Positions 14,758-37,052 of a stretch of 64,000 bases of DNA are shown piece after piece. Within the stretch, counting starts at the first letter, position 1; every line of letters begins with the position of its first letter. Source of the DNA: a virus (taxonomy: Duplodnaviria; Heunggongvirae; Uroviricota; Caudoviricetes); the IMG/VR virus record IMGVR_UViG_3300029544_000210, positions 20,406-84,405 of that record, one strand, 5' to 3'. Under the pieces are notes generated by a model. It saw only the letters and a program-made list of their open reading frames with translations. It was not told the origin of the DNA and searched no databases. Both the position numbers and the translations under genes were made by a program.

Positions 14758-14930
14758 TTTTTGTTCACCAATAGTAGCTGCGCAGCTTTACTCACATGTG
14801 AACATTTTCCTTTCTTTAATTGTACTTATATTGTTATATTCTCTTGTTTTGTCCTGAATATTGTATAATTTTCGTGACAAGCCAAGAAACCAAAATTTCT
14901 TCTTGTTTTATTCTTTACCTACTTGTTATT

Positions 14931-16092: not shown

Positions 16093-16113
16093 GTGTATAT
16101 TCTCCTATCGTTT

Positions 16114-19560: not shown

Positions 19561-19563
19561 ATT

Positions 19564-20076: not shown

Positions 20077-20480
20077 AATGTTTTTCCTTTCTATACTATA
20101 TCTTGTTATTATTATTTTATCTAACCAGTATATGTAGTGTTAAACTTACCATGAAATGTCGGTTTCAATTCTCGTCATCTTGAAATGCTTTTATTCTATT
20201 TTCAAGATAATCTATCTCATCTTTCCAATGCTCAACTAACATATCTTCAATCTGTTGTTTTGCATCTTCTATGCTATCAGCAATAATTGTGTCATATTCT
20301 ACATTTAATTCTTCTGAAACATAAATATAAACATTCTCATCCGTTTCATCTTGAACAAATCCAGCTACTACATTCTCATTTTCTTCTTCATAGAACTGAC
20401 TGAAATGTAGTTTATAACATTCTTTGCCAAATTCGTTTTTCTCTCCTACTTCCCAATATTTATTCATAAACACCTCACAA

Positions 20481-20705
20481 TTAATTATTCTCTTCATATT
20501 TCTGATCAAATAAGATCATTACAAAAGTAAAAGTGAATATACCTAAAACAATACCACCAACTAAGGCAATTGATTGTGGCAGGAATAAAGATAGTAAAAG
20601 ACTAAATCCTAAAACTAATCCAATTGCCATAGCACATATAATTGCAACTACTAATAATACAGTACAAGTCATTTTAAACGCTTCCTTCAAGTTATCACCT
20701 CCCAA
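20481..20705 (-). CDS. small membrane protein (two TM helices)
   Basis: Hydrophobic stretches VLLVVAIICAMAIGLVLGF and IALVGGIVLGIFTFTFVMI. Confidence 0.45.
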   Translation of the reverse strand: MGGDNLKEAFKMTCTVLLVVAIICAMAIGLVLGFSLLLSLFLPQSIALVGGIVLGIFTFTFVMILFDQKYEENN

Positions 20706-21023
20706 TGAAAGACAGGGTTCTTGTCAAATTTTTATTATTCATATGCTGTCATTTCTATAAAATTCTCATTCAAATCAAATACAATAGCTGCTTGACAATA
20801 AGTACCACCAATAATTAATTCTTTTACATTAGGATTCCATGTTTTCTCTTCGTACTTGATTTTCCATTTATCTAACCAATTCTTCCATTGAATGTAATCT
20901 GATACACATTTTTGACTGCCAAGAATTTGCATCACATCAGACTTTCTTACAAAGCCCATTTCAGATGGTAGCTTGGACAATTCTTTTCGTAATACTGCTT
21001 TATCAATTAATTGTCCCATATGG

Positions 21024-21563
21024 TTATTCTCCTTCTCTACGAGTATATGGTTCACAAAACTCCAACATTTCTTCATTTATATGTCCTTCTTTAATAAGCT
21101 GTTCATACAAATCAATCCAACCTTGTGCAGATAGGTTATGATAATATCCAATACAGTTTCTCCAATGTTTACAATCAAATGTCGATGGATAAGTTTTAAT
21201 TTCAATGTATGTTCTACACTTTTCATATAGATTCTTAGAATAACAATTTGACGCACTTTTAACATAACTATTACATTCAATAAAAGCTTCTGTTGGATCA
21301 TACTTACTTCTCATGTCTGTTAATATTCTGTCATATAATTCTGTCTTAGCGATATATATGCAATGGATTAGAAAATAGATATCATCATCTTCATATGAAG
21401 AACTTGTATAGAATATTTGATTGTGATTGACTTGTTTGTGAGTATCTTGTGGTGTAAACGTTGCTAAAACCTTTTCGATTTCTTCTTTGTGTTCCAAATA
21501 ATTATCAATAGGATCTCTGATTAAATTACACTCAGCTCTATATCCTCGTTTATAATCTGACAT
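21024..21563 (-). CDS. hypothetical protein. Paralog of 5546..5911
   Basis: Shared N-terminal domain YKRGYRAECNLIRDPIDNYLEHKEEIE. Confidence 0.5.
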   Translation of the reverse strand: MSDYKRGYRAECNLIRDPIDNYLEHKEEIEKVLATFTPQDTHKQVNHNQIFYTSSSYEDDDIYFLIHCIYIAKTELYDRILTDMRSKYDPTEAFIECNSYVKSASNCYSKNLYEKCRTYIEIKTYPSTFDCKHWRNCIGYYHNLSAQGWIDLYEQLIKEGHINEEMLEFCEPYTRREGE

Positions 21564-22068
21564 ACTGTTATTCTCCTAATCAATTTCTTCAAATGCAACA
21601 CTATTAAATTCCACATCTGGAAACTCTTTTATATATACAATTGTGTGCCAAGAATGAACTACAATATCTTCCAATGTATATTCTTTATCAACTTCCAATA
21701 AGTGATGATTTTCACCGCCACCACCCCATACGTCATCATCGTTTCTAACACATTTAATTTTTCTTCGTTTTGTATTATAAATATCCATTTAATTTCCACT
21801 CCTCTTCCAAACACCTATATATTCCTGTGACTCCTGTTTGAATCTTTTTAACATATCAATTAATGCATCTACTTCTGTCAAATCATTAAAAACAATCTCA
21901 ACTGGATCTTTTTCTTTTAAATCCAATCTTTCTGCGTAAGGAAATGGTTTGATAAAACATTCAAATTTAATATCTCTGCCCTTATGTCTGAGTGTGATTT
22001 CATTAACATTTTCTTTGTCACCAATCTTCAATATTTTGCCTCCTTGTGAAATGCGAGTTTCATTTGAA

Positions 22069-22815
22069 CTAAATCTCAAACAACTTCTCTACAGCTTTCT
22101 CACCTGTAACTCTATCTGACTTCTGTAACACTTTGCGTTCTTTCTGCCAGATACATTTAAAATCATCAGGCATATTATATTCACTTATCAACACTATATT
22201 ATTTTCTGAAAGTTTACGAAGAAAATCGTAGAATTCGCTATAGTCGATTGACTGTTTAGAATACTGTTTTGTATTTTTATAAGGTGGATCGAAGTAAAAG
22301 AGGCAGTTCTTATAATCTGCAAAGTCTTTGTAATCACAACATCTAAATTCAATATCATTTAAATCAGGAATTTGTGTTCTAAAATTCTTCAGTCTTTCAT
22401 TATAAATACTTCTACCACCCTTAGAATCTCTGCCATATCCACCATCAAAATATCTGCCACCATAAGATGCACAATATCCAATAAGTGCTATATACTCTTT
22501 TGAATACTTATGTGTTCCAAGTTTTCTATCTTCTCTCACATCGGCATAATGTTCAAATGTACATACATCTGGTGCAATAGATAAATCATTATCAGACTGA
22601 GCATATTTCAATAAAGCAATTAGTTCTTCATTAATGTCAGCCCCTATCTTCTTATCACATTTAATCTTATCAATTAAATTCGCTCCACCAACCATAGGTT
22701 CTATGTAAGTTTTAATATTATTGTCATCAATATACTTCTGAATAATTGGCACTAAAAATTTTGCCAATCTATTTTTACTTCCTTGATATACCATTCCATT
22801 ACCAGAAAGTGACAT
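22069..22815 (-). CDS. Dam-family DNA N6-adenine methyltransferase
   Basis: YQGSKNRL, EPMVGGANL (motif I), YFDPPY (motif IV). Paralog of 28735..29460. Confidence 0.75.
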   Translation of the reverse strand: MSLSGNGMVYQGSKNRLAKFLVPIIQKYIDDNNIKTYIEPMVGGANLIDKIKCDKKIGADINEELIALLKYAQSDNDLSIAPDVCTFEHYADVREDRKLGTHKYSKEYIALIGYCASYGGRYFDGGYGRDSKGGRSIYNERLKNFRTQIPDLNDIEFRCCDYKDFADYKNCLFYFDPPYKNTKQYSKQSIDYSEFYDFLRKLSENNIVLISEYNMPDDFKCIWQKERKVLQKSDRVTGEKAVEKLFEI

Positions 22816-22860
22816 GTCCTTAGTAGCTACCTAACTTTTTCCTTTCTGTTTTAATATTTT

Positions 22861-23685
22861 CTACTTCACATATAAACTTTCATACACAATACTATCATTT
22901 GATTTACCAATAGTACGCTTAAAGCTGCTATTACCACTAAGTAAATATTCGTGTCGTGTATATACATCTTCTGGAACATTCCATGTATTGTCTATATCCC
23001 CACTCTTACCATCGAATGATAAAGCATACTTGCAAGGTAAACTCCTCAAATAATTCCAAAACTTCTCATAATCAATTGTTCCATAATACATACCCTTTGT
23101 ATTGGCATAAGGTGGATCAAGATACAAGAAGTCGTTATCTGTTGGGTTAATATCTTCATAAGAACAACTGATAAACTCTACATTATTTTTCTTCAGCATA
23201 TGACTCCACTCAAAAATAATCTTTTCAAAAGTTTCAGGAATAATACCATTTCTTGTTACATGAAAAGAATTATTAAATTCACCATCACGATTATATCTTG
23301 GCATACCATTAGTAGTAGTTCTCATAATGAACATAAAATCTAATGGATTATGTTCTTTATTGTATCGTTCTCTTACACTTGCAAAATATTCTTTTTTACG
23401 TTGTTTGTCATCATCAACATTTAACTCATTCCAGAGTTTCTTATAATAAAAATAAACTTCTAATGGATTATTGATAATCTCTTTCCATAAATCAATTAAC
23501 CCGCTATTCAAATCACTACATACATAATGATTAACTTTGATGTCGCTATCTAATAATCTCCTTAATACAGACGCTCCACCACAAAACGGTTCATAATATG
23601 TATCAATTTCTTTTGGAAAGAATGTCAGTATCTTTTCTGCCTGACTTCTTTTACTTCCACTCCATTTAATTACTGGTTCGTACAT
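22861..23685 (-). CDS. Dam-family DNA N6-adenine methyltransferase
   Basis: IKWSGSKRS, EPFCGGASV, LYLDPPY. Confidence 0.8.
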   Translation of the reverse strand: MYEPVIKWSGSKRSQAEKILTFFPKEIDTYYEPFCGGASVLRRLLDSDIKVNHYVCSDLNSGLIDLWKEIINNPLEVYFYYKKLWNELNVDDDKQRKKEYFASVRERYNKEHNPLDFMFIMRTTTNGMPRYNRDGEFNNSFHVTRNGIIPETFEKIIFEWSHMLKKNNVEFISCSYEDINPTDNDFLYLDPPYANTKGMYYGTIDYEKFWNYLRSLPCKYALSFDGKSGDIDNTWNVPEDVYTRHEYLLSGNSSFKRTIGKSNDSIVYESLYVK

Positions 23686-24186
23686 TTAATCTACTCAGAG
23701 CGAAATTTCTTTAAGGCTGCCACTCACTCCTTTCGTATTTTGTTCACATATATATTTTCTATTTATTCAACAAATCCAAGAATAATTTTTGCAATACACT
23801 TTGCATTATGAGAATCCATATCTTGAATAATCGCTTTTGCAAGATTGATATTATGATATTCTATAATTTCAATCTCTTCGTCTGTTGGATTATTACGATC
23901 TTCAATCGCTGAGTTAAACTTCTGACAAGTTGATATAATATTTTCAAGCATATTTTTCACCTCGCTAACTTCAAATGAAAGATTTCTTTCAATGTATTAT
24001 TTGAATTCTATCTTATTTCTTTTTAATACCTTAACTGCCTTGTCATAATCAGTTTCAGCTACTTTGATGTTTTTCATCTTGGTAGGCTTTGGTTTTATCC
24101 AATAGCGACATTCTGTAATATCTTCGTCATACCACATCAAACCACCTTCACAATATTTATGATACTGGCAGTCATTGTTACCACAT

Positions 24187-25041
24187 CTACTCATTTATAT
24201 ATTCTCTCACTCTCTTATTTCCAACCTCAAAAATTTCCTTATCTTTCTCAAAACATATGTAATTCCTATTTGTATTCATAGCTGCAATCGCAGTTGTACA
24301 ACTTCCTGCACACGAATCAAGAACCAAATCACCTGGATTTGTGTATGTCTTGATAAAATACTCACACGCTTCAACAGGCTTTTGGCACTGATGTAAGCTA
24401 CTTTTCTGAGTATCCCATTTAAACTGCAAAACATCTCTTGGATATCTTTGTGTACTACCACCACCTGAAATACCAATCTTTGTAGCACCATAACAGTTAC
24501 CATCTGTTGTATGTTTTGTATAAGAATGAACAGGCGTATGTCCTTCTGTCATTTGTGGATTGTAAGTAGGGAGTTTCTTATAGAAAATCAAGACATTTTC
24601 GTGTGCCTTCATAGGCATTTTCTTAGCGTTTAGATGACCAGTTGCTTTGGTCTTTTCGATAATCCATTCATAGCGATATAGCTTTTCATTACTACAAGCG
24701 AGCCTCTTATCAAATGGTGACTGCGCCCATAATGCAATACAACCATTATCTTTGATAATTCGATTGTAGTGAGTCCATAAACCATCTTTTTTGTTCTCAT
24801 AAAACCAATCTCTTGTATATTCAAGACTGCTATCTATTACTTGAGCTAACTCGAACAAATCTGTTTCATAAAAATATTGACCTGATAATTCCACATAATC
24901 ATTTAACGGCATTTCACATTCCCAAGAATTATTAGTCGTATTATAAGGCAGATCCGTGAAGATGAAATCGACTGACTTATCATCAATCTTTTTCATACCT
25001 TCAAGACAGTCTTCGTTGTATATTTTGTTAATCTCTAACAT
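24187..25041 (-). CDS. beta-class N6/N4 DNA methyltransferase (pfam N6_N4_Mtase-like)
   Basis: Motif IV-like FTDLPYN precedes motif I VLDSCAGSCTT, which is the beta-class circular permutation. Confidence 0.65.
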   Translation of the reverse strand: MLEINKIYNEDCLEGMKKIDDKSVDFIFTDLPYNTTNNSWECEMPLNDYVELSGQYFYETDLFELAQVIDSSLEYTRDWFYENKKDGLWTHYNRIIKDNGCIALWAQSPFDKRLACSNEKLYRYEWIIEKTKATGHLNAKKMPMKAHENVLIFYKKLPTYNPQMTEGHTPVHSYTKHTTDGNCYGATKIGISGGGSTQRYPRDVLQFKWDTQKSSLHQCQKPVEACEYFIKTYTNPGDLVLDSCAGSCTTAIAAMNTNRNYICFEKDKEIFEVGNKRVREYINE

Positions 25042-25171
25042 TTCTTACTCAGAGCAAATCCAGATTTAATGCTGCAGCAAATCTCTCGCTCCTTTCATTG
25101 TATTAATTCTCTTAATAAATCTCTGTCCATTCACTAATTTCTACTTTATTATCAGGATAACCAGACAAACT

Positions 25172-25552
25172 TCATTCATTATCGTTATATACTACTTTCC
25201 ACATAGCATTTTCTCCATGTGGATTACCTTTAATTTTTCCATAATATAATCCCGAACATGGAGGTACTTCTTCGTCAACATTCTTCCAAATTGGCTTTTC
25301 ATATACCTTATTAATGTCATCTACCGCTTTTGCCAAATTCGTCATTGTATTTGTAAAATATTTTTCCTCTGTTTTAAGCATAGAATCAAAATAACTCTTC
25401 ATAATGTCTAAAAGATTTTTTGTAAATTTTTCAGATGTGTCATTCATTCCAAGTATGTAAGTATGATTAATCTTAAAAGAAATTCCAAGTCCAATAAGTG
25501 TTCCAACACAAAGTCCTAATAATCCAATTAATACCATTAAACAAATATCCAT
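25172..25552 (-). CDS. membrane-anchored hypothetical protein
   Basis: N-terminal TM helix MDICLMVLIGLLGLCVGTLIGLGI. Confidence 0.4.
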   Translation of the reverse strand: MDICLMVLIGLLGLCVGTLIGLGISFKINHTYILGMNDTSEKFTKNLLDIMKSYFDSMLKTEEKYFTNTMTNLAKAVDDINKVYEKPIWKNVDEEVPPCSGLYYGKIKGNPHGENAMWKVVYNDNE

Positions 25553-25623
25553 ATTTTACCTCTCTTTCTTATCATCCGAAGGAAACTTCGGTTTACTGTG
25601 TCTTTTGTAATATCATTTATTTA

Positions 25624-25983
25624 CTATGGTAAGTCAACAATATTGTATCTAACAGTACCATCGTCATATTTCTTGGTTTCTAATATTCCATCAACATATT
25701 CTCCAATTTTGTCTGAATATTTGTTATATGTATTACTACCAGAAATATTATATTCTACACTGTTATATTCAACAGTAATTCTATAAACTGCTGAATGCGA
25801 TTGTGGCATCATCGTTTTAGTCGCAGGATTATAATGCATTGTTGTATAAGCAGCCCTGTGATATTCGTCTGTTATTTTTACTTGAACCGTAGATGTTTCG
25901 GTGCTAATGCATTTTGCACAGCCGGTTAATATAAACATAAATGCTAATAGTAAAGCCAAACTATATAAAATTTTCTTCTTCAT
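25624..25983 (-). CDS. lipoprotein
   Basis: Signal peptide with lipobox LTGCAKC. Confidence 0.5.
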   Translation of the reverse strand: MKKKILYSLALLLAFMFILTGCAKCISTETSTVQVKITDEYHRAAYTTMHYNPATKTMMPQSHSAVYRITVEYNSVEYNISGSNTYNKYSDKIGEYVDGILETKKYDDGTVRYNIVDLP

Positions 25984-28734
25984 ATGGTTTATTCGACCTC
26001 CTTTAACACAAGAATTGCTTTATAGTATCTACTATTACATGAGCTGGACTCTACTTTATATCCAGCATCTAAATAATCATCCATAGCATTCTCAAAATCA
26101 TTGCTATTTTCCATTTCTAAAATTACACATTTCTTCATATGGCTTATTCTCCTTTACTATATCCAGTCTCTTCAAGGAATTTATCAAATTCCTCTTTTTT
26201 CATACAGTTTGGATAATACATATCTACCACCATATCAAACGGCTTTAAATAATTATCCAATACATCTTCAGCATTCTCTTTTGCTTCCTGCATTTTCATA
26301 TTGATATAATCTTCTCTCGTCATATTCCATGCTGTAGGACAATCCGTGACACTCGAAAATCTACAATATAATCCATTCGGTTGTTTTGATATAAATCCTG
26401 CCATATTATTCTCCTAATTCTTTTAGTGCATTAACAAGTTCAGCGAGTCTTGGATTCTCAGGATGCTCCTTTGCCATCTTTTCATATAAAGCAATATTAT
26501 TCATCTTTTCAATCTCAGACTTTAGCTCCTCCTCAATAGAGGCTTTTTGCTTTGCAATTTCTTTCTGACGATTTTCCTCGTCAGTTCTTGCATTGTATGC
26601 GTTCATATTAACTACACCAACAACCTGAGCTGTCACACCTTTTCCATACTCTTCGACTGTCTTAATTTCTTTTAAAATTCCAAGAACTCTATTGCCTTTC
26701 CCTCTTGCATTTACAACCAGATACAACGGATGATTGGTATCATACTTAAGAATTTCATTAATATCTTTATCATATAAAGCAAATCCATAATCTTTCTTAT
26801 TGTAATCATCTACCAAATTTACAATCGCCACTTTACTAAATCCTGTCATTTTATTATCCTCACTTTCATCTCTAATAATATTCAATTCACTTCTACTGAA
26901 CCAATATAATCCATTGGAACTTGCTGCATTATACATTCCGTCAATCTGAACAGCTATTGATCCGTTTGTAGTTTTAATAACTTGTCCATATAGCCCAACA
27001 ATGTTTTCTTCTCTGTATTTTCTTTTATCAGTATATGTAACTTTTACTCGTTGATTTTGATATTCTTCATAATCGTAAATCTTGCTCATCGCATCACCTC
27101 CTGTTAATATATTCTCGTATCATTTACAATTTTTTGACAATTTTCAATTACCCTACAAATCAATCTCTTTCCATTATCACTAAAATAATCATTATTTTTC
27201 TGTTGATTATAGTAATCTTCAAGTTTATTGTTAGCAGATTTTAACCTTCGAGATATATTAGCATAGTCGCACTTATTATCACATTCCGATGAATATTCTT
27301 TATTGTATCTTAATTTACATTCCATACATGGACTGTACATTTTGCACCTCCTGTTAATTTATTCTCCTAATCCATATCTTCTTAACCATTCTTTTTTGCT
27401 TAATGTGGTTACACCACGTTTCTTTTGTTGCTTCCATACCTTGATAGCATATTCTTTTGTCATTCCTGGCACTGGATAATGTATTACGGATTTTGAGATT
27501 GTATATGGTTTTCCTATAGAAGCCATCTTCAACAAATCTAATAAGTTAGTCATAAATATAGCCTCCTAATCCTCAATATAATTTATTTCTTCCAAAATTG
27601 AACTTCCTATAACATATAGTTTCTTTGAAATTATCCTTGTTACTCTTTTAAGGAATTCTTTATGAAGTTCATTCTCTTGCTCATACACAACCATTTTTTG
27701 ATTCCCATTTCTATGACAGCAAGCATATGTTCCTTCCTCATACTCAGCTCCATAATAATAAAAATACAGATTGTATTTATGATTATGTTTACTAAATAAC
27801 CACGGATGAAGCGTTGCAATAGTTATATAGTTATTTCCGATTTTTATTCTAAAATCATAATGTGACTTATTTTGTACGATTTTCAAAAACTTCACCTCTT
27901 TTCATATTAAGAGTACATTCATTTCTATACTCTATGAGAGCATACTTGTTCCTTATCATTACATGTTAGGATCGAGGTTTATTCCAAGGCATTATATTCT
28001 CAAATGAGTTTCAGCCTATACGCTCATCGGTTGACTGACTTGTTAATTTCAGCCTTCACCTTTACTTTTTCACCATCTCAGGTTTTCAGTTCGTTTTACC
28101 TCATTTATATATTCTCTGCTAGAGCAGAAGAAATCTATGATTCTTGTTCTTCTACAACCTTATTATTTTATGTCATCTCTTTCATAAAAACATAAAAGCT
28201 CCGCAGCATGATTCCTTTGAATAGTAAGATTATCTACTTCCTCCTTTAGTTCTTTATTCTTTTTTTCAAGTTCGGCTATTCTATTTCTCAACACATCTTC
28301 TGTTAAAAACTTCTGAGTTCCAATTTGCTTATAATCAAACGGAACAGATTTAACAGAATAATTGCTGATATAATCTGTTGTCCCATCGGTATATGTAATA
28401 GTTGGCTCAAAAAATCCACGATTCTTACAATTGTCACAATGGCAGATAGATGAAATATACCCAATCTTGCCATCATTGTTTTCTACAAAATCACCTTCAT
28501 GAAATTGAATGTCTGTTATATTATTCTCTTTAGGAATAACTGGCTCTCTAAATATAAGTTTTAAATATCCTTCACCTACATTTTCTTCACCGATAAACGT
28601 ATAACCACGATCTTCGTATTTTTTAACTGTTTCTTTTGCTTTGCATATCTTTACGCCAACAGTCATCTATTCATTCTCCTTTTTCTTTGTTTTTGTATAT
28701 ATTTATTCTCTGAAAATCAAAAAGAAATTCCGCT

Positions 28735-29460
28735 TTACTTGGAATTTTTATTTTTATACATAAACAGCTTTTCTCTTCGAAAATCCTTAATGTTATTACA
28801 TTCTCTATTGCTGTCAAATGTAATCTTAACTTGTTTCTCCCAAATGCAATCAAAGTCATCTGGCATTGAATATTCACTTATAATGACAACATTATCTTTA
28901 GACATTTCTCTACACCATTGATAAAATTGTTCATATGGAAATTCACCTGTTTTGTATTTGGTTGTATTTTTATACGGTGGATCACAATATATTACATACC
29001 CATGTAAATTAGAATAATCTAAAAATGAAGCTGTTCTAAAATGGATATCTTTAAGATTTGGAGCTTGCTTCATGCATGATTTGTAAGAATAAATATCTCC
29101 CCGATGTTTAGCATCATCACGCTTTGCATAACCACCAAACCACTTTGCTCCAAAACTAAGTTCATATCCTATATACCCTGTTATAAAATCAGAATATTTG
29201 TCAGGATTATTTTTTACATCAATATAAAATTCTTTCGATACTTCTTTTGGTGGTTCAATTCCTTGCTGCAAACCAATAAGTACAGAAATTACATATTTAT
29301 CAATATCGCTTCCTATCTTATTGTCACATTCAATTTTATCAATAATATTTGCACCACCTACGAATGGTTCTAAATAACCATTGCATCCCTTGTCTATATA
29401 ATTCTGTATAATCGGTACAATTTGTTTTGATAACCGATTTTTGCTTCCCATGTAAATCAT
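28735..29460 (-). CDS. Dam-family DNA N6-adenine methyltransferase
   Basis: GSKNRL, EPFVGGANI, YCDPPY. Paralog of 22069..22815. Confidence 0.75.
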   Translation of the reverse strand: MIYMGSKNRLSKQIVPIIQNYIDKGCNGYLEPFVGGANIIDKIECDNKIGSDIDKYVISVLIGLQQGIEPPKEVSKEFYIDVKNNPDKYSDFITGYIGYELSFGAKWFGGYAKRDDAKHRGDIYSYKSCMKQAPNLKDIHFRTASFLDYSNLHGYVIYCDPPYKNTTKYKTGEFPYEQFYQWCREMSKDNVVIISEYSMPDDFDCIWEKQVKITFDSNRECNNIKDFRREKLFMYKNKNSK

Positions 29461-29517
29461 TATGTATCAGGAGTAAACGCTGCGTTTTCGGTATACCAAA
29501 CCTCTTACTCCTTTCTT

Positions 29518-30441
29518 TTATTCTCTTAACCCACTCAAAATCCATTCAATAGTAGGTTCATTCCATCCATTGCCCATCAAACTACATCTTTTTGAGTATG
29601 ATAACCAACGATTGTTAAGCTGAATTTTTGTAAAATTATCAGGCAATCCCTGTAATCTTTCATATTCAACTTCTGTAAGTTTTCGTGGTCTACCACTATC
29701 TAATACTTTCTTTTCGTGATATCCACCATTGATACAAGTCAATGTGCAGCACTTAAAATCTGGATTATAAATTCTTCTATTCATTTCCATAGAATTAACT
29801 TTTAACTCTGCGCATACACGTTTGTTCATATCCAAGATTTCAAAATCTTTCTTATAGAAATATTTCTCATCTACACTATTCTCCATAATATCTTTCAAAA
29901 CTAATGGAGATTCATCAGGTAATTTACCTAATGGTATGTTTGTCCAATAATATCTTTCACGATTTTGAGACGAAAATCTTCCTGAATCAATCAAAATAGG
30001 TTCTACACCAATACATTCTGTCATTGTCTTCAGATCTTCGTCACAACTTGGTATTACATTCTCAAACATGAAATATTTGGGCTGAATTGCCCTAAGACAC
30101 TCAATTGCTTTAAAGAAAATTCCTGACTTACCATCAAGACCATTATTGACCTCTTTGCTTTCAATTCGTACTCTTGAAATTGACTGGCAACAAGTTCCTG
30201 CCAACAGTAAATCAAATCCTTTGAACTGTTCAAAATCCGCTTCATATAAATCGCCATGATGTACCACAAACGGAAAATGGTACTGAGAAACTGCTATGGC
30301 TTCTGGCAAAATTTCATATGTATGATATTCTCTTATAGGTATTCCGAGCTGCTGTAACGCATACAATCCTGTTTCAACGCCACCACATAAACTTAACACT
30401 CGTAGCCCCTTGAGAATTATTTTTTCATTATTCTCTGTCAA
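29518..30441 (-). CDS. DNA (cytosine-5)-methyltransferase
   Basis: Motif I LSLCGGVETG, catalytic motif IV GTCCQSIS (PCQ-type Cys), and ENV (motif VI). Confidence 0.7.
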   Translation of the reverse strand: MTENNEKIILKGLRVLSLCGGVETGLYALQQLGIPIREYHTYEILPEAIAVSQYHFPFVVHHGDLYEADFEQFKGFDLLLAGTCCQSISRVRIESKEVNNGLDGKSGIFFKAIECLRAIQPKYFMFENVIPSCDEDLKTMTECIGVEPILIDSGRFSSQNRERYYWTNIPLGKLPDESPLVLKDIMENSVDEKYFYKKDFEILDMNKRVCAELKVNSMEMNRRIYNPDFKCCTLTCINGGYHEKKVLDSGRPRKLTEVEYERLQGLPDNFTKIQLNNRWLSYSKRCSLMGNGWNEPTIEWILSGLRE

Positions 30442-30951
30442 AATACACTATTTTACAGAGGTTATATAACCATAATTACCTAGGAGTTACTGCTTAATTC
30501 CTTTCTTCTTGATTATTTTGTTGTAAAATCCTATGGAATTTGCACGTCTGCAAAAACCATAAGAAAAAAATATTTCTTGTTACTTTTATTTGGAAATTTT
30601 GGCTGAATTGCCAAGATAGAAATTTCTATATATGATTATTCTCTACATACTTTCTAATAAAACTGTTTCCAGTTCGATAGAACCCCAATTATTATTTGGT
30701 TTAATATAAGCAATTGATAAAACAGAACACTCATAGCCAGGAGAATCAAATGCGTCCGTAACATCCAGCTTAAAAGAAATGTTCTTTTTAGTCAATTCCT
30801 GCTTCAGCTCGTCAACAACATCATAATAATTTTCTTCATCTTCTCTGTAACGATGATAATATTCATGTTCTTCATCAAAATACTTGTCCAAAATTTCTTC
30901 TATAATATCCATCCTTTTCACCTCACAATCCAAAGAAAGAGAATTTTAATC

Positions 30952-31404
30952 CTAAAATGCAGTACCACTCTCACCCTGATTAATTTCTTTACACTTCTGA
31001 TCACACTCTTCCAATGTCTTAAACAAAGAAGTCTCTCCTCTATTTCTTACATTTACATATTCTCCAACAGAATTAACTTTATATTTAATTGTGGTTACAT
31101 CATTCCAAATACTAGCCACAATTCTTCTAATTTTAACTTTATGAGGTACAACCACTGTCTGTTTACATACAATCTTCCCTGTTGTATTACACTGTTTACA
31201 TGGAATTTCATATCCGTTGTAAAGAATCTTCTTTGTTCCTTTACATATTGGACAAATAATTTCTACATTTTCTCTTGCGTATGTATAACATTCTTCCCCA
31301 ATTTCAAACTTATTGTCTATTGTTTTCATTTTAAAATACCTCCTAATATAATAAATAATGTGCCATACGAGGTTTGAACTCGTAACATCTTGATTAAAAG
31401 TCAA
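30952..31404 (-). CDS. zinc-ribbon hypothetical protein
   Basis: CPICKG...CKQCNTTGKIVCKQ. Confidence 0.4.
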   Translation of the reverse strand: MTFNQDVTSSNLVWHIIYYIRRYFKMKTIDNKFEIGEECYTYARENVEIICPICKGTKKILYNGYEIPCKQCNTTGKIVCKQTVVVPHKVKIRRIVASIWNDVTTIKYKVNSVGEYVNVRNRGETSLFKTLEECDQKCKEINQGESGTAF

Positions 31405-31431
31405 GTGCTCTACCTATTGAGATAATGGCAC
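31359..31431 (-). tRNA. tRNA-Lys (anticodon UUU)
   Basis: Minus-strand cloverleaf. Acceptor GTGCCAT/ATGGCAC, anticodon stem CTTGA/TCAAG with loop CTTTTAA, T-arm ACGAG-TTCAAAC-CTCGT. The D/anticodon region is close to E. coli tRNA-Lys. No encoded CCA. Confidence 0.8.
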
Positions 31432-31435
31432 ACAG

Positions 31436-31507
31436 CTAGGATGGTGGGATTCGAACCACGAATGTCAGAATCAAAATCTGATGTGTTGACCACTTCACCA
31501 CATCCCA
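31436..31507 (-). tRNA. tRNA-Gln (anticodon UUG), with an atypical T-arm
   Basis: Minus strand. Acceptor TGGGATG/CATCCTA (one G-U pair), D-arm GTGA...CAC, anticodon stem TCAGA/TCTGA with loop TTTTGAT, T-loop TTCGAAT. The T-stem pairs imperfectly (only 4 bp, or an 8-nt loop). Confidence 0.55.
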
Positions 31508-31553
31508 TTAGTAAGGTGTGAGTTATATCACACCTTTTAATTAATATTAATAA

Positions 31554-32423
31554 TTACTTATCTGTTACAACTGTATTGTTAGTTCCAGAAATAGTAACCC
31601 AACCAAATTTATTTCTTGCTTCGGCTTCCTTCATTCTTATAAGCTCATCTGTAATAGAAGAACTTAACTTATTATTCGCCTCTGCCTGTGCTTTAGCTTC
31701 GATTAACTGTGCATCAGCCTTTGCTTGTGCTTCTGCCTTAGTTACTTCTGCATCAGCCTTTGCCTTATTAATAGCTGTCTGATTATTAATTTCCTGAGTT
31801 TCGGCTGCCTGCTGTGCTGTAATCTTTGCATTAATAGCTTCCTGTGTCTTTGTATCAACGGAAATATTAATCAATGATACATTACTAATCGCTATACCAT
31901 ATGGTTCAAACTTCTTATTAAGATAATCAGTTAATGCTGTATTTACATTTGCTCTTTCAGAACCAAGAATATCTGACACCTTATAGTTAGCAACAATTTC
32001 TTTAGTCCAAGAAATAATGTTAGGTTTAATAAAACTGTCTCTTACTTCCTTTCCAGATTGTCCTCTAAATCTTGTAAATAGATCAGCTACCTTATCAGGA
32101 CTATACTGATATGTAAATGTAAGATCTATCTGCATAGCCTTACCCTCAGATGAACTCGCTGAAAAGCTGTCATCATCTTTAGAGTCTCCGTCCTTACCAG
32201 ATGTTAAATAACTCTGTTCAAGACTCACCGAGTAAAGTGTCGTTTTTACAGTTGGTGACTTTAAATGCCATCCTTGTGTAAGAATATCGCCTTTTACTCC
32301 ACCCGACATACTGTACTGTACGGCAATATAGCCAGCAGGTACACGCACACTTGACATAAATAATAATATTGCTACAACAACAATTACTACTACTGTTACT
32401 ACTCCTCCGATTGTTTTCTTCAT
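31554..32423 (-). CDS. SPFH/band-7 (prohibitin/HflK-like) membrane protein
   Basis: N-terminal TM helix, then PAGYIAVQYSMSGGVKGDILTQGWHLKSP, typical of PHB/SPFH domains. C-terminal Ala/Lys/Glu-rich coiled coil. Confidence 0.65.
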   Translation of the reverse strand: MKKTIGGVVTVVVIVVVAILLFMSSVRVPAGYIAVQYSMSGGVKGDILTQGWHLKSPTVKTTLYSVSLEQSYLTSGKDGDSKDDDSFSASSSEGKAMQIDLTFTYQYSPDKVADLFTRFRGQSGKEVRDSFIKPNIISWTKEIVANYKVSDILGSERANVNTALTDYLNKKFEPYGIAISNVSLINISVDTKTQEAINAKITAQQAAETQEINNQTAINKAKADAEVTKAEAQAKADAQLIEAKAQAEANNKLSSSITDELIRMKEAEARNKFGWVTISGTNNTVVTDK

Positions 32424-32581
32424 TCTTTTGTCTCCTTTTCTTCGTTATTATTTATTTCATCTGTCGAAAATACTTTATTTATAACATTGATAACAAACTT
32501 ACCAATTTTTTCAAATAAAGGTGACAGTAGAAACCATAAAATTATTAATCCTATTAAAACTAATATAAAAAATACTGACAT
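32420..32581 (-). CDS. small membrane protein (~52 aa), translationally coupled to the SPFH gene (ATGA overlap)
   Basis: Minus-strand ORF MSVFFILVLIGLIILWFLLSPLFEKIGKF..., not in the supplied track (under 60 aa). Its stop overlaps the SPFH start codon. Confidence 0.4.
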   Translation of the reverse strand: MSVFFILVLIGLIILWFLLSPLFEKIGKFVINVINKVFSTDEINNNEEKETKE

Positions 32582-32694
32582 TTAACTATTCTCCTTTTCG
32601 TATTATATTTTTCTTCCATTAGCTTGATAATCTCAACATTTCTGTAGTATATATTGAATAATCATTTTACTGAGTAAAATGTTGTCTTAACCGT

Positions 32695-32796
32695 GTTTTG
32701 TATCTATGTTAAATTAAACATATCTAAAACAAAGAACATAGTATATTGTTGGTTAAAGTAGTTTTGTATCTATGTTAAATTAAACATATCTAAAAC
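32695..32796. CRISPR. mini CRISPR-like array 1: two 36-nt direct repeats (GTTTTGTATCTATGTTAAATTAAACATATCTAAAAC) flanking one 30-nt spacer
   Basis: Exact 36-nt repeat at 32695..32730 and 32761..32796. Spacer 32731..32760 is AAAGAACATAGTATATTGTTGGTTAAAGTA. Lies directly downstream of the Cas12/TnpB-like gene's 3' end. Confidence 0.75.
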
Positions 32797-32900
32797 CTCA
32801 AATCACACAGATACTATTAACATAGATTCTAACGAGTGCCATTAATTAACAACCTCGCCATTCAGGTGCAAAATCACCTGCAATCTTACGATTGATTAAG
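32797..32900 (-). ncRNA. candidate tracrRNA/omegaRNA-like scaffold 1 (conserved in all three cassettes; contains an anti-repeat)
   Basis: Begins CTCAAA right after the repeat. Contains TTAACATAGAT, complementary to ATCTATGTTAA inside the repeat. Shares CTCAAA...ACATAGATT...GAGTGC...AAAAT...GCAAT...GATTGAT blocks with 34479..34560. Sits where a TnpB omegaRNA would be, abutting the gene's 3' end. Confidence 0.55.
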
Positions 32901-32906
32901 TAGCAC

Positions 32907-34295
32907 TTAAGCTACTTTATTATTCTCTGAACCATTCTTACTTTGTTCATATTTTTCAGAGATATCATAATATTCTCTTGCTTCCTGTTTACTCTTTTCA
33001 GTAACTTGTCCACTTCCCATCCAAAGAGTTGACATTGCAATGTTTCTGGCAGCATTGAAGTCTGCATTAAAACCAGTTTTTTCATATTTTTTATGACTAT
33101 CACAATTCTCATTTGCACATTCAAATACTGACTGTGACTTTCTCTGACCAAACTCCCAATTACCACATACACTACAAATCTGTGATGTATAACAAGGATT
33201 GATTTTTCTTACTTCTATTCCGTATTTAGCTGCTTTATATGTAATATAATCTTGAAGTTTATAATAACTCCAATTTCTCAGGATAAAATCACTTGTATCA
33301 TATCCTGTTAAATTCTCAATATTTATGTATTTAGCATTATGTTTTAAAGCAAAATCAACGACTCTTTTACTTATCATATGACAATATGTTTCAACAAAAT
33401 GTACTTCTGCTTTCTGCAATCTTTCTAATGCTTTCAGTTTCTTTGCTCTACCATGACCACCAGAAGTATTTCGTAATGACTTCTGTAATCTTTTTCTCTG
33501 AGCTTGCATTTTAGTTCTTATTCTTAGAAAATCATCTGCATTTCCAATTGCCAATCTCTCGTAAAGATTATTGTTTAAAGCACACATAGCAGGAACTGCA
33601 ATGCCTAAATCAACACCTACTACTATATTTTCATCCAGCTCTCTAAGTTGTTTTGGAATAGATATTGAGAGATTTAAAATGATTGACTTACCATCAATTT
33701 CAATGCTACTTCCTTGCACTTTATAATTCTCTTCTAATATATTCTGAATAACAGATCTTAACTCTAATGACCTATGCGGATTGCCAAACACAACCTTAAA
33801 TACAATTTTATTAACCCACTTGACATATACCGCCAAATCAGAATCATTAATCTTGTCTAAAAAATCATGATATGTTTCATACTCATGATAAAAAGTTAAG
33901 TTTCTGCCTCTTGTAATAAGTGGATTAGTTCTCTTATAATTTGTTACAGTTCGTTCACCTTTAGCCAATCCATTCTTTAAAGCTGTGCTGAAATCCTGCT
34001 TGACTTTCTGAGTAACGGCTGATGGAGTGTCTACACCAGTTGCAAAATCAATATCTTTTAATATGATATTAGAGTTTGTCATTATTTCTTTCTGTCTTGC
34101 CTTAAATTCTTCATTCTTAATATCACGATTATATTTGTAATATTCACTCATAAGCTGTCCCATAAGCAGGTTACAAGCCTGATATTGAGCATACTGACCA
34201 TTTCTAATAAAGTTATATACTCTATTGATTTCATCCTTATCTCCTACTGGAAATAATTTAATTTTTCTACAAATTGTCATTCTATTGTTTCCCAT
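32907..34295 (-). CDS. TnpB / Cas12-like RuvC nuclease (462 aa), candidate compact type V effector
   Basis: RuvC-I VGVDLGIAVP; RuvC-II KYINIENLTGYD; zinc finger CYTSQICSVCG...C..ENC; RuvC-III FNADFNAARNIAM (the DxNAAxNI signature of TnpB/Cas12). No TnpA (Y1 HuH) ORF nearby. Confidence 0.85.
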   Translation of the reverse strand: MGNNRMTICRKIKLFPVGDKDEINRVYNFIRNGQYAQYQACNLLMGQLMSEYYKYNRDIKNEEFKARQKEIMTNSNIILKDIDFATGVDTPSAVTQKVKQDFSTALKNGLAKGERTVTNYKRTNPLITRGRNLTFYHEYETYHDFLDKINDSDLAVYVKWVNKIVFKVVFGNPHRSLELRSVIQNILEENYKVQGSSIEIDGKSIILNLSISIPKQLRELDENIVVGVDLGIAVPAMCALNNNLYERLAIGNADDFLRIRTKMQAQRKRLQKSLRNTSGGHGRAKKLKALERLQKAEVHFVETYCHMISKRVVDFALKHNAKYINIENLTGYDTSDFILRNWSYYKLQDYITYKAAKYGIEVRKINPCYTSQICSVCGNWEFGQRKSQSVFECANENCDSHKKYEKTGFNADFNAARNIAMSTLWMGSGQVTEKSKQEAREYYDISEKYEQSKNGSENNKVA

Positions 34296-34376
34296 AATTT
34301 GTAAATCTCCTTTTATATTTTTTGTAATTTTAAATATCTCTAAAATTAAACAGCTTACAAGTACAACAACGCAAGT

Positions 34377-34478
34377 GTTTTATACCTATGTAATTTTATA
34401 TGTATCTAAAACTTCTATATCTTCAACAATTTCAACAGGTTTGTTTTATACCTATGTAATTTTATATGTATCTAAAAC
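34377..34478. CRISPR. mini CRISPR-like array 2: two 36-nt repeats (GTTTTATACCTATGTAATTTTATATGTATCTAAAAC) flanking one 30-nt spacer
   Basis: Exact repeats at 34377..34412 and 34443..34478. Spacer 34413..34442 is TTCTATATCTTCAACAATTTCAACAGGTTT. The repeat shares GTTTT...ATCTAAAAC termini with array 1. Confidence 0.75.
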
Positions 34479-34560
34479 CTCAAACTTATTACATAGATTT
34501 TCATGAGTTGCATTGCACTCACGATTCGGCAGTAAAATCTACCGCAATAGAATTGATTTT
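34479..34560 (-). ncRNA. candidate tracrRNA/omegaRNA-like scaffold 2
   Basis: CTCAAACTTATTACATAGATTTTCATGAGTTGCATTGCACTCACGATTCGGCAGTAAAATCTACCGCAATAGAATTGAT. Contains the anti-repeat ATTACATAG (complementary to the repeat's CTATGTAAT) and a short hairpin TGAGT..ACTCA. Confidence 0.5.
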
Positions 34561-34585
34561 AATTTCATTTATATATTCTTTTAAT

Positions 34586-34741
34586 GAGATGTAATTTTAT
34601 ATACTTCTAAAAATTTATAACTTGTGTCGATACATATTATGTAATTTTGCTAGTATGTAACTATACTTCCAAAACAACTGAAACATCTCCTCTCTGTTGC
34701 CAGATATTTTGTTAGTATGTAATTTCATATACTTCCAAAAC
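34586..34741. CRISPR. degenerate mini-array 3: three imperfect ~25-35-nt repeats (..GTAATTT(T)ATATACTTCCAAAAC) with ~27- and 31-nt spacers
   Basis: Repeat-like copies at 34586..34613, 34641..34675 and 34707..34741. Spacers 34614..34640 and 34676..34706 (AACTGAAACATCTCCTCTCTGTTGCCAGATA). Confidence 0.5.
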
Positions 34742-34840
34742 TTCAAATTACATATAAATTACATACTTTTCAGTGAGTGATATAATCCTCACTATTCGGA
34801 CTCAAAATAGCCCGTAGTCAAAAGACTAATTGTTATAGGA
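34742..34840 (-). ncRNA. candidate tracrRNA/omegaRNA-like scaffold 3
   Basis: TTCAAATTACATATAAATTACATACTTTTCAGTGAGTGATATAATCCTCACTATTCGGACTCAAAATAGCCCGTAGTC... AAATTACATACT is an exact 12-nt complement of the array-3 repeat core. Hairpin GTGAG..CTCAC. Ends with ATTCGG..CAAAAT..G blocks shared with scaffold 2. Confidence 0.5.
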
Positions 34841-35507
34841 TAAACTGGCTTGAATTAGCCAAATAGATTTGTTATAATAGAACATATATAGTTTATCCTA
34901 TATTTTATTCTCTGAGCAGATTGTTTAGGTCGGTAAACTTGTGCAATCTGTTCTCTTCTATTTAATATCTTCCCAATCGGTTTCATCCTTATCATTAGCA
35001 AAATTCATGAATAAGTGAATATATAATTCAATAATTCGCTCCTTTGATAAGGCTTGTAACTGTTTTCTAAGTTCATTTCGCTTATTTGTATCTTTATCCA
35101 TTTTATTATTCTCCTGTATTTTAGCATCTTACTAACAAGCTACTTATATCATCAGCAAGTACTTCTCTGTCAGTAACAATCCATTGACACCTAAAATCTC
35201 TATCTGCACATAACGAAGTAAAATCAGCATAACTTTGTATCTTATCTGGCTTTGCTATTGCTCTATAACACTGTTTTCTTCTTTCACATGTTTTGCTTGT
35301 ACACATTGTAATATCTGGCATAGTTATTTTTCTCCCTTATACTCTTTTAAAATATCCTGTAAATTGCTATAGTGTGTATACATAAATTGACCATACCCAT
35401 TATCTTTTTTGAATCCGTCTAATTGCATATATAAACAAATATCAGACAAGGTTTCCATTATTTCAATTTGCATTTTCTTTTTTAATACAATACTTTTTAA
35501 CAATGTT

Positions 35508-37052
35508 TTAATTAACACTAGCTGTTCTTCCTTTCTCCATATTATTTAAGAAATTTATGTAATTATCAAAATCTCTCTTCATATATCTATAATTTACTTC
35601 CTGCGAAGAACTATATGTCTTATCAATTGAATTCTTCTGATACTGTTCAATCCAAGTTGCAAGTTCTTCATCCTTATCAGTTTTATAAGCATAAGCTGTT
35701 AATGCCATTAACGCTGCTTCACACTGTTTATATAACGATGAATTTATATCAATATATACATCAACAAAATCTTGATATTCACTTATATCTTCATTCTCTA
35801 TATCTTCTGCCACACTATTTTGAACAAACTGTAATACATCAGAACTACCCGTATTCTGTTCTGATATATTACTATCTGTTTCATCGTCTTCATTAGAAGA
35901 CATAGTATTATTCTCTGTTTCAGAGATAATTTGTACTGTGTTTTCTGTTGTATTTTCAACAACTTCTTCGATTTCTGAATGAGTTTCTTCCTTATTTATA
36001 TGTAAATATTCTTCCATAAGCTTAGTAACCATATCTAACTTAGCCATTACAACTTTTTTATCCTTTGTGCTTCGGTTGCTATCATATGTATCAAATGATT
36101 CATTATCATATTCTTTAAATGTCTTGCTATGTAATATTCCCTGAAATTCATTTAAGAAATCAGCAAATTTAATATCTTCTATGTTATATGAAGTAAACTT
36201 ATGAAAAGCTGCCAACCAAATAAAGCTATTCTTGCTATTAAATAACTGTCCGTTAGTATCTTGATCTATTACTTTTTGTAATCTATTAAGTTCCTCTTCT
36301 AATATATTGAATTCCTCTTCTGCGGCATTTTCATTAAGATACTTAGCCATAGCTACGTTTTTCTTCCAAGAATCAGAATGGAACATTAACATTAATGACT
36401 CTTCAACTACTCTATTTAATACTTCTTTCTTTCTTTCAGGTGCTGTATATTCACCACAGTCCAAGAAGAATCTATTCTTTGTAACCCTTTTAAGTGAATC
36501 TACCACTTTATACATCATCAAAACATTTTTCTGATTTGTATTCATACTTGTCTGCTTATTATATCTATCAATATGATAAGCTATCTCTTCATTAGTACAA
36601 TCAAGATGCTTAACTATATCTACCTGGAAATTATCAAATTCTTCTCTTAACTCATCTGGAAGGTCTTTGTATTTCTTACCTCTTAAATCATACTCAACAA
36701 CATTACCACTTCCATCTTCAGCTTGATAAGCTATCATAGACATTCTCAATGATTTTCCCATTGCAAAGACATTATTTTTAAACTCTTCCAATACAGTTAA
36801 TCTCTGTAATCCATCAATAAGCCAGTTTGTGAAACTATTTTCGTAAATCTGTTCACATAATTTAATTGAATCAATATCTTCATGTTTAATTACACTGGCA
36901 GCAAGTCCAGATTTTGCTTCGTCCGACCACTGATCAGGTTTTCTCTGTAATGGATGATTCTTATTGATTACATTTGTTCTAAACTGCTTAATCACCGTTC
37001 CTAACATTAATTGTGTCTTTACTACCTTATCTCTTCCTAACATTACTGCCAT
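35508..37052 (-). CDS. DUF262 / ParB-like nuclease-superfamily protein (514 aa)
   Basis: LIDGLQRLTVL matches the DUF262 DGQQR-type motif seen in GmrSD/DndB/BrxU-like proteins. Acidic Ser/Asp/Glu-rich C-terminal region. Confidence 0.55.
   Translation of the reverse strand: MAVMLGRDKVVKTQLMLGTVIKQFRTNVINKNHPLQRKPDQWSDEAKSGLAASVIKHEDIDSIKLCEQIYENSFTNWLIDGLQRLTVLEEFKNNVFAMGKSLRMSMIAYQAEDGSGNVVEYDLRGKKYKDLPDELREEFDNFQVDIVKHLDCTNEEIAYHIDRYNKQTSMNTNQKNVLMMYKVVDSLKRVTKNRFFLDCGEYTAPERKKEVLNRVVEESLMLMFHSDSWKKNVAMAKYLNENAAEEEFNILEEELNRLQKVIDQDTNGQLFNSKNSFIWLAAFHKFTSYNIEDIKFADFLNEFQGILHSKTFKEYDNESFDTYDSNRSTKDKKVVMAKLDMVTKLMEEYLHINKEETHSEIEEVVENTTENTVQIISETENNTMSSNEDDETDSNISEQNTGSSDVLQFVQNSVAEDIENEDISEYQDFVDVYIDINSSLYKQCEAALMALTAYAYKTDKDEELATWIEQYQKNSIDKTYSSSQEVNYRYMKRDFDNYINFLNNMEKGRTASVN

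Follow-up and report, generated by a model that had tools for sequence, protein, structure and literature searches.

A probable type V-F1 Cas12f system of a phage, with three modules of tracrRNA and cognate mini-array

Type V-F1 CRISPR (short palindromic repeats, clustered and regularly interspaced) systems combine a miniature Cas12f1 nuclease with a trans-activating CRISPR RNA (tracrRNA) encoded between the effector gene and the array. Their solved representatives include 8HR5 and 9NZP, the latter being RhCas12f of Ruminiclostridium herbifermentans (PMC13186708). RhCas12f1 uses a 5'-NCCD protospacer adjacent motif (PAM), with CCA giving the highest fraction of active sites among the CCD PAMs tested (Kong et al. 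2023, PMC10090079). Three other kinds of described element are relevant for comparison: TnpB with its omegaRNA (IS200/IS605) and TranC (10.64898/2026.03.27.714800); the mini-arrays of (jumbo) phages without adaptation modules, which rely on a host effector and host repeats (PMC11656645); and the Cas9 viral single-guide RNAs (vsgRNAs) of phages, which are type II, ~90 nt long, carry the guide at the 5' end, come without an effector and inhibit host Cas9 (bioRxiv 10.64898/2026.06.01.729453). Here, we analyze a locus in a 64,000-nt stretch of IMG/VR record IMGVR_UViG_3300029544_000210 (the window, to which all positions refer unless a contig is named). Located at 32695-34835 on the minus strand, it contains a single cas12f gene together with three cassettes in the same orientation, in each of which a structured scaffold of 80-100 nt abuts a mini-array of 36-nt repeats and 30-nt spacers. 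Judged from its sequence and that of its relatives, the locus is very probably a type V-F1 Cas12f system of a phage, with three modules that each combine a tracrRNA with its cognate mini-array, and is directed against competing mobile elements. It is a known system in an unusual modular layout and not a transposon-to-CRISPR intermediate.

Read along the minus strand, the locus is ordered as terminator-like hairpin, scaffold 3, array 3, scaffold 2, array 2, cas12f open reading frame (ORF), scaffold 1 and array 1 (Table 1). The original prediction, made from the letters of the window, had reported three scaffold-plus-mini-array cassettes flanking a nuclease gene, and reading of the sequence, a repeat finder and Tandem Repeats Finder recovered all of these units. 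It had also placed cassette 1 at the 3' end of the gene, where scaffold 1 indeed starts 11 nt past the cas12f stop codon. The repeat-spacer-repeat layout ascribed to every cassette holds for cassette 1, whose repeats are identical 36-mers, but not for cassettes 2 and 3, which have two spacers each and a third, degenerate terminal repeat. In array 2, the first two repeats are identical, both spacers are 30 nt long, and the terminal repeat of 37 nt overlaps the ribosome-binding site of cas12f (AAAAGGAG). Cassette 3 had been called degenerate; its middle repeat is shortened to 32 nt by a 4-nt deletion and its last repeat is degenerate, but the first is not, as it equals the consensus cassette-3 repeat of related phages.

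The 462-aa nuclease matches the Pfam Cas12f1-like TNB domain (PF07282, 1.7e-15) and the NCBIfam model of the RNA-guided TnpB family (3.6e-47). Its top matches among solved structures are 8hr5_A (E 7.8e-88, residues 21-444) and 9nzp_A (E 1.8e-81), while bona fide TnpB structures reach only E ~2e-3. We take 8HR5 to be CnCas12f1 of Clostridium novyi; the PDB record names the molecule just 'Transposase'. At the motif level, the RuvC motifs GVDLG, INIENL and NADFNAARNIA line up with those of 8HR5 and 9NZP, and the zinc-ribbon cysteines (CSVCG...CANENC) are present and aligned with those of the solved enzymes, giving the C-terminal RuvC split by a zinc ribbon (TNB) that marks a Cas12f1 effector. These matches place the phage protein within the characterized Cas12f1 enzymes. 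The Cas12 'hacker' (Cas12p) phage family was also considered and rejected, as it has another size, PAM (GTN) and tracrRNA and matches the query at only E 2e-3 as well.

Related loci were collected by a protein-based scan of IMG/VR, which returned 24 phage loci. In 18 of them, Cas12f is 95-100% identical to that of the window and the locus is syntenic, with the same three-cassette layout. The other six encode a Cas12f of 48-60% identity together with up to six or seven tandem scaffold-plus-mini-array cassettes (e.g., L020 and L022). Six phages keep stems 0-2 of tracrRNA 1 and have lost its anti-repeat and array, and one locus (L012) has an internal deletion; the modules decay independently. No DNA relative of the locus was found among GenBank phages.

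To examine the scaffolds, 38 distinct cassettes from related phages were aligned (alignment A1), each represented by its first repeat and the 100 nt upstream. RNAalifold independently found stem 2 and a long-range duplex between the 3' part of the scaffold and the 3' half of the repeat. A structure defined by hand was scored on the same cassettes; it has stems 0, 1 and 2, a duplex of anti-repeat and repeat, and a pseudoknot in which the stem-1 loop pairs with the final bases of the repeat. Paired cells make up 92.0% under this structure, compared to 31-44% when the partners are slid by 1-3 columns, and compensatory changes occur at 27 of the 37 pairs. The covariation score is 0.474 versus 0.05-0.07, and the observed values were reached by none of 500 shuffles. 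Compensatory covariation is spread over five helices. The 5-bp pseudoknot between the stem-1 loop and the repeat 3' end occurs as ATTTTG/CAAAA, ATTTTA/TAAAA, ATTTCG/CGAAA, ACTTTG/CAAAG and ATTTCA/TGAAA, without any one-sided change; in the window, cassette 2 has TTTTA/TAAAA, and cassettes 1 and 3 have TTTTG/CAAAA. G-U pairs are frequent in the covarying structure, indicating that the minus (gene) strand is the RNA strand. Folded singly, each window cassette adopts the same architecture, with z-scores of -3.8, -3.9 and -6.1 (the last for cassette 3); together with the covariation, this puts the pattern well outside chance expectation. The conserved scaffold blocks and anti-repeats of the original prediction are real, and the pseudoknot is an addition to it.

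On the gene strand, the anti-repeat of every module pairs with the 3' half of the repeat that belongs to the same module. Across multi-cassette genomes, pairing with the own repeat averages 15.2/18 and with other repeats 12.1/18, and the own repeat is strictly the best partner in 28 of 34 cassettes. The blocks CGG..GATTT..CCGAA..TGAGG..CACTC are common to the window scaffolds and the validated RhCas12f1 tracrRNA, whose stem-1 loop ATTTAG likewise complements its repeat end TAAAT (Kong et al. 2023, Supplementary Data 1, PMC10090079). On the strength of covariation, own-repeat pairing and this homology, we identify the scaffold as a tracrRNA homologous to that of RhCas12f1, in line with the earlier claim of a tracr/omega-type scaffold with an anti-repeat cognate to its own repeat. 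The blocks that contact the protein are conserved in all three cassettes, and both the anti-repeat duplex and the pseudoknot to the repeat 3' end that are expected of a V-F1 tracrRNA were found. An Rfam E-value scan of 31000-36500 returned two tRNAs only, so the scaffold belongs to no curated family. No further scaffold copies were found elsewhere in the window.

Compared with the described type V-F1 systems (8HR5; RhCas12f1 9NZP; Kong et al. 2023, PMC10090079; PMC13186708), the locus agrees in effector family and size, in a tracrRNA between gene and array, in the stem-1 pseudoknot loop, the GAA linker and stem 2 (GAGG...CACTC), in an anti-repeat to the 3' half of the repeat and in a C-rich 5' PAM (NCCD). 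It differs in its three modules (relatives have as many as six or seven), in each of which a divergent repeat is accompanied by a tracrRNA of its own that co-varies with it. The tracrRNA also lacks the stem that RhCas12f1 has between stem 2 and the anti-repeat, and it abuts the first repeat. With ~75-85 nt from stem 1 to anti-repeat versus 124 nt in RhCas12f1, these are unusually short natural Cas12f1 scaffolds, for a small enzyme with a CCA PAM. The carrier, in turn, is a large phage, and the repeats are 36 nt long (GTTTTAGA...AAAAC), in contrast to the 30-nt repeats of RhCas12f1 ending in ...GGAATGTAAAT (Kong et al. 2023, Supplementary Data 1). The open-access literature yielded no description of several tracrRNA genes per locus, each with its own mini-array and diverging in step, that serve one nuclease.

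Spacers extracted from all loci amount to 68 distinct sequences, and comparison of near-identical phages shows that spacer gain is polarized, occurring at the tracrRNA-proximal end. In cassette 3, the series runs from sp26-sp27 (L011) through sp31-sp26-sp27 (L014) to sp30-sp31-sp26-sp27 (L013, L015) and sp37-sp31-sp26-sp27 (L017). In cassette 2, it runs from sp14-sp15 (L007) through sp13-sp14-sp15 (L005) to sp16-sp13-sp14-sp15 (L006). Two features set the window apart from L001, whose Cas12f is 100% identical: a proximal spacer in array 2 that is unique to the window, and a spacer in array 1, of which L001 has a single repeat only. The distal window spacer of array 2 is common to L018, L001 and L002, and both window spacers of array 3 are old, distal ones common to L011-L017. 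The spacer sp06 is present in two phages, as part of array 2 in L002 and of array 1 in L018. Such differences between close relatives indicate that the arrays are live and still updating.

Three protospacers were found, all matching at 30/30 positions and all with a 5'-CCA flank; their spacers come from the arrays of relatives and not from those of the window. Two of the spacers, sp14 and sp23, belong to different phages and match overlapping stretches on the two strands of an integrase gene (phrog_216, 3e-26). The viral contig with this gene (L027, 28.6 kb) additionally codes for an HNH nuclease and a sigma factor. The 5' flanks of the sp23 and sp14 targets are TTCCA and TACCA, respectively. 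The third spacer, sp06, matches three non-array contigs from metagenomes, of which at least one is of human-gut origin, with the 5' flank AATCCA; the protospacer lies inside a 550-aa ORF that adjoins a weak small-terminase match. The chance probability of three CCA flanks out of three is ~(1/64)^3. Variable spacers and 5' PAM-flanked protospacers, both characteristic of V-F1 systems, were found, the latter by way of the relatives' arrays. Self-targeting was not seen, as neither the rest of the window nor the flanks of the locus contained a match to any spacer.

The junction between leader and repeat, (A/G)TTTGAG/GTTT, is conserved in about 90% of the 38 cassettes (A1 columns 133-138) and lies outside every helix. 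Because it is conserved though unpaired, a role at the DNA level is suggested. The leader end of type II-A Group 1 arrays reads ATTTGAG/GTTT, and 36-nt GTTT...AAAC repeats are also found in type II-A (PMC5382924). The phage arrays resemble type II-A in this junction, in their 36-nt GTTT...AAAC repeats and in their 30-nt spacers. However, the PAM of the phage spacers is on the side of the leader, an orientation known from types I and V and the reverse of that in type II-A. Because of this leader-proximal PAM, we treat servicing of the arrays by a type II-A-like adaptation machinery of the host as no more than a weak hypothesis. A domain scan of 43 window ORFs of 145 aa or more, up to position 56478, detected neither Cas1 nor Cas4, with smaller ORFs (the size of Cas2) and five large ORFs beyond 57439 outside the scan. 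Adjacent cas1, cas2 and cas4 genes, as expected of a canonical V-F1 locus, were thus not found within the scanned ORFs; adaptation genes are not required for interference.

In the working that we propose for this V-F1 system, the modules and cas12f would be transcribed from the minus strand. The nascent tracrRNA would pair in cis with the first repeat, yielding the topology of an engineered Cas12f single-guide RNA in which the 5' half of the repeat forms a ~40-nt loop, and in trans with later repeats. As the tracrRNA lies 9-30 nt upstream of the first repeat in the same orientation, it is plausible that a co-transcript of the two would fold in this single-guide-like manner. The guide RNA may then be loaded on a Cas12f dimer, as expected by homology to the solved complexes, and the complex would cut CCA-flanked DNA of rival mobile elements during co-infection. 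New spacers would be installed in trans by adaptation machinery recognizing the TTTGAG/GTTT junction. The modules would duplicate, diverge, decay and be lost independently, resulting in a redundant, recombination-resistant guide repertoire.

Several observations weigh against this account. The PAM is based on three protospacers, all from relatives' arrays. None of the five spacers of the window itself has a target in the collections searched: exact IMG/VR scans with four of them returned nothing or only the arrays themselves, and GenBank phages contained no match to the 68 pooled spacers, a query covering four of the five window spacers (the exact window form of the distal cassette-3 spacer was outside it). 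Likewise, none of the cassette-3 spacers gave a target. Pairing across modules is just moderately worse than cognate pairing, so that the modules are cognate but not orthogonal. A scan for promoters and terminators did no better than on shuffled sequence, with 18 promoter sites compared to 17.9, which leaves the transcription units, processing sites and cis pairing as predictions. Finally, adaptation would have to be supplied in trans by other machinery.

The original prediction had raised a possible omegaRNA-to-CRISPR intermediate, in which the scaffold-plus-array units would be ancestral, half-split omegaRNAs of a TnpB. A scaffold directly past the nuclease gene, a tracrRNA abutting its array and a pseudoknot architecture common to omegaRNA-type guides all agree with such an origin, as do the fused RNAs of relatives described below, which take flanking DNA as guide in an omegaRNA-like way. 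The position past the gene's 3' end is, however, the ordinary position of a Cas12f1 tracrRNA too, and the protein falls inside characterized Cas12f1, with TnpB structures at the far weaker E-value given above. RhCas12f1, to whose tracrRNA that of the window is homologous, has a normal array, and a bacterial relative has a separate tracrRNA: in Anaerotignum (L035, 45% identity), a single tracrRNA lies ~140 nt from a 15-repeat array. TnpB and TranC (10.64898/2026.03.27.714800) resemble the locus in the miniature RuvC nuclease, the scaffold right past the gene and the pseudoknot-containing guide scaffold; the window differs in having real repeats and exchangeable, polarized spacers, and in a protein that groups with Cas12f1 and not with TnpB or TranC. 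Instead of a single omegaRNA that overlaps the gene's 3' end and stops at the transposon right end, with a guide set by flanking DNA, the scaffold past the stop codon is followed by repeats whose spacers differ among phages with 95-100% identical Cas12f, and spacers have PAM-flanked targets. No transposon ends or TnpA were recognized at the locus (ends were not modeled), no transposase domain occurs in the neighboring ORFs, and no multicopy mobility was seen, the locus being syntenic in 18 phages while its spacers turn over. The intermediate is therefore not supported, and we consider it improbable.

The Anaerotignum locus has no cas1, cas2 or cas4 within 6 kb; its repeats (within L035 7570-8548) are ~32 nt long (GTCGCG...ATGAAAA) and type I-C-like. 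A second bacterial relative, on a contig of a Treponema metagenome-assembled genome (L036), has two abutting modules, as in the phages. Across the Cas12f1 clade, the repeats look like those of different co-resident CRISPR types, which suggests that foreign arrays were captured more than once and that the tracrRNA then co-adapted. The RhCas12f1 repeat, for its part, resembles clostridial type I-B.

A degenerate-pattern scan over IMG/VR found the tracrRNA core on 47 contigs. On 13 of these, the tracrRNA is followed by a 5-11-nt loop, a 12-13-nt repeat remnant (e.g., ATAAGTACAAAA) and then unique sequence in place of a full repeat, a form that we read as a compact natural single-guide-like RNA. 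Four fused sequence types keep the anti-repeat hairpin through compensatory changes (ACTTAT/ATAAGT, ACTTGT/GCAAGT, ATCTA/TAGAT and CTGTGTAT/ATACGCAG); all four keep the pseudoknot partner and fold as expected, with a free 3' tail. No such orphan fused RNA is present in the window. Seven contigs share an identical module (Table 1), in which the ribosome-binding site of a PemK/MazF toxin gene (Pfam 5.4e-25), together with its ATG, forms the 3' 'guide'. By analogy with CreTA, the MazF-linked RNA may serve Cas12f-dependent toxin control or addiction; the fused RNAs may also control translation, act as decoys or have no function. One fused copy is located past the cas12f stop codon, ahead of a normal mini-array (L062, L066 and L073).

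Because of the phylogenetic position of the protein, the fused forms look like secondary compaction and not like ancestral omegaRNAs; given the evidence against the intermediate, the compact and fused forms are more simply explained as derived compaction or re-fusion. One further idea, which we regard as tentative and on balance doubtful, is that tracrRNA plus array act as a cis-acting, portable 'guide module' in which the split tracrRNA and CRISPR RNA (crRNA) are re-joined: as a long-loop natural single guide in the window, and compacted in relatives to fused RNAs that use the start of a MazF- or HicA-linked gene as guide. If true, the RNA splitting believed to have given rise to type V CRISPR would here have been reversed naturally, or the module would form a Cas12f-dependent control or addiction circuit analogous to CreTA. 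Toxin-adjacent fused derivatives, if functional, would bear on whether the split of omegaRNA into tracrRNA and crRNA runs both ways.

Further observations concern individual fused RNAs. On L066 (1276-1356), a second fused guide stands at the place of the ribosome-binding site and ATG of an ORF preceding a weak HicA match (compared with L059, minus strand, ~710, and L071, ~7585). Sequence common with the relatives begins right past its repeat remnant, so that the fused guide marks a mosaic junction. A homing model for the fused RNAs was considered; as the 'empty' sites are preceded by ...AAATGC (ribosome-binding site and ATG) and not by CCA, it is unsupported as it stands. Two other fused types occur without cas12f in the stretch examined, one at L055 6483-6545(-), L056 3757-3819 and L079 5937-5999, the other at L070 11165-11229(-). 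The L070 copy lies ~70 nt upstream of an ORF beginning MGYTNSPLVVYTKLSPN..., which by eye has the look of a cell-wall amidase or endolysin.

A second alternative to the V-F1 system holds that cassettes 2 and 3, or all three, are decoys, that is, RNA anti-CRISPRs or viral single-guide-like RNAs that sequester or redirect the Cas12f of a host or rival. Phages are known to encode repeat mimics and natural single-guide RNAs that subvert Cas9, and cassette 3, with its deleted repeat and spacers for which no target was found, would suit this role. The Cas9 vsgRNAs share the natural tracrRNA-repeat fusion with the relatives' compact forms and, in topology, with the window cassettes. Yet the window cassettes retain full repeats and real spacers beside their own nuclease, and a decoy would be a mimic with no cognate effector and a short or absent guide, whereas here the effector is encoded between the cassettes and the spacers have their full 30 nt. 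Moreover, perfect matches next to a PAM were found in other elements for cassette-1 and cassette-2 spacers of relatives, and the protein-contact blocks are kept throughout. Spacer gain is directional in all three types of cassette, a property that a decoy would not require. Overall, decoys seem very unlikely, slightly more so than the intermediate. The published viral mini-arrays (PMC11656645) are like the window's in having short arrays, no adaptation genes nearby and mobile-element targets; in contrast to them, this phage brings its own effector and a dedicated tracrRNA for each array. Lastly, chance similarity of AT-rich repeats or insertion-sequence end remnants without RNA function, conceivable in a region of ~30% G+C where many short repeats arise by chance, is refuted by the five-helix compensatory covariation with its slide and shuffle controls, the folding z-scores, the homology to a validated tracrRNA and the recurrence of the window's scaffold core on 47 IMG/VR contigs.

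If the locus works as a V-F1 system, one miniature nuclease with several co-evolving tracrRNA/repeat pairs per genome offers a natural experiment on the co-variation of anti-repeat and pseudoknot, and it shows the extent of guide-scaffold variation that Cas12f tolerates. The dozens of natural variants could be of use for guide engineering and possibly for partial multiplexing. It would also be an actively updated CRISPR system of a human-gut phage directed against other mobile elements, with no adaptation genes in sight.

Table 1. Positions of the cas12f gene, the three modules and associated elements in the window, and of MazF-linked fused RNAs on related contigs
Feature	Position	Strand	Details
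cas12f gene, 462 aa	32907..34295	-	predicted type V-F1 effector; RuvC motifs and CxxC...CxxxxC zinc finger
tracrRNA 1	32797..32896	-	stem 0 32894-32881; stem 1 32880-32863; stem 2 32860-32830; anti-repeat 32827-32817
tracrRNA 1 pseudoknot loop AUUUUG	32874-32869	-	within stem 1
tracrRNA 1 TTTGAG leader-repeat junction	32802-32797	-	
Mini-array 1	32695..32796	-	repeat 32796-32761; 30-nt spacer 32760-32731 (TACTTTAACCAACAATATACTATGTTCTTT); repeat 32730-32695
tracrRNA 2	34479..34560	-	stem 0 34555-34545; stem 1 34544-34527; stem 2 34524-34501; anti-repeat 34498-34488
tracrRNA 2 TTTGAG junction	34484-34479	-	
Mini-array 2	34310..34478	-	repeat 34478-34443; spacer 34442-34413; repeat 34412-34377; spacer 34376-34347; degenerate terminal repeat 34346-34310
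tracrRNA 3	34742..34835	-	stem 0 34828-34815; stem 1 34814-34797; stem 2 34794-34771; anti-repeat 34767-34756
TTTGAG junction, cassette 3	~34742-34747	-	
Mini-array 3	34578..34741	-	repeat 34741-34706; spacer 34705-34676; 32-nt repeat 34675-34644; spacer 34643-34614; degenerate terminal repeat 34613-34578
Terminator-like hairpin with T-run	34845..34862	-	directly upstream of cassette 3; prediction only
Fused tracrRNA, 5-nt loop and 12-nt remnant before MazF	L051 5227-5290(-), L059 1305-1368(-), L060 933-996, L066 2821-2884, L069 695-758(-), L071 9436-9499, L078 5980-6043(-)		

The overlap between the terminal repeat of array 2 and the cas12f ribosome-binding site (…TATAAAAGGAG…ATG) is kept in all close relatives. 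We speculate that this repeat-like element, which opens the 5' untranslated region of cas12f, could mediate feedback on translation, i.e., autoregulation. The terminator-like hairpin listed in Table 1 is a possible boundary of the transcription unit. At 34835-34900, an 11-bp inverted repeat (TAGGATAAACT ... AGTTTATCCTA) encloses such a hairpin and an extended -10-like promoter match on the plus strand.

The window has a G+C content of ~31% throughout, and 96 of its 103 ORFs are on the minus strand. Contigs related to it reach 186 kb, pointing to a large gut phage. In keeping with a phage setting, the window contains a tRNA-Lys and a tRNA-Gln, and its ORFs include several DNA methyltransferases, an HNH nuclease, an RNA ligase and a protein of the integrase family. 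Next to cas12f, an SPFH/Band-7 gene (31554-32423, minus strand) adjoins a gene for a small membrane protein or NfeD (32420-32581, minus strand). The same pairing of an SPFH/Band-7 gene with a small gene near cas12f is seen in the Anaerotignum chromosome (L035 4426-5858), which may be a coincidence or a conserved neighborhood. Farther away, the region ~13900-30500 holds a counter-defense-type gene cluster with at least six DNA methyltransferase-like ORFs (D12 Dam-type, N6/N4 and C5). The same region encodes a complete nicotinamide adenine dinucleotide (NAD) salvage set (NAD synthase, NAMPT, NAPRTase, an isochorismatase/nicotinamidase-type protein and a phosphoribosyltransferase), together with a YpsA/SLOG protein.

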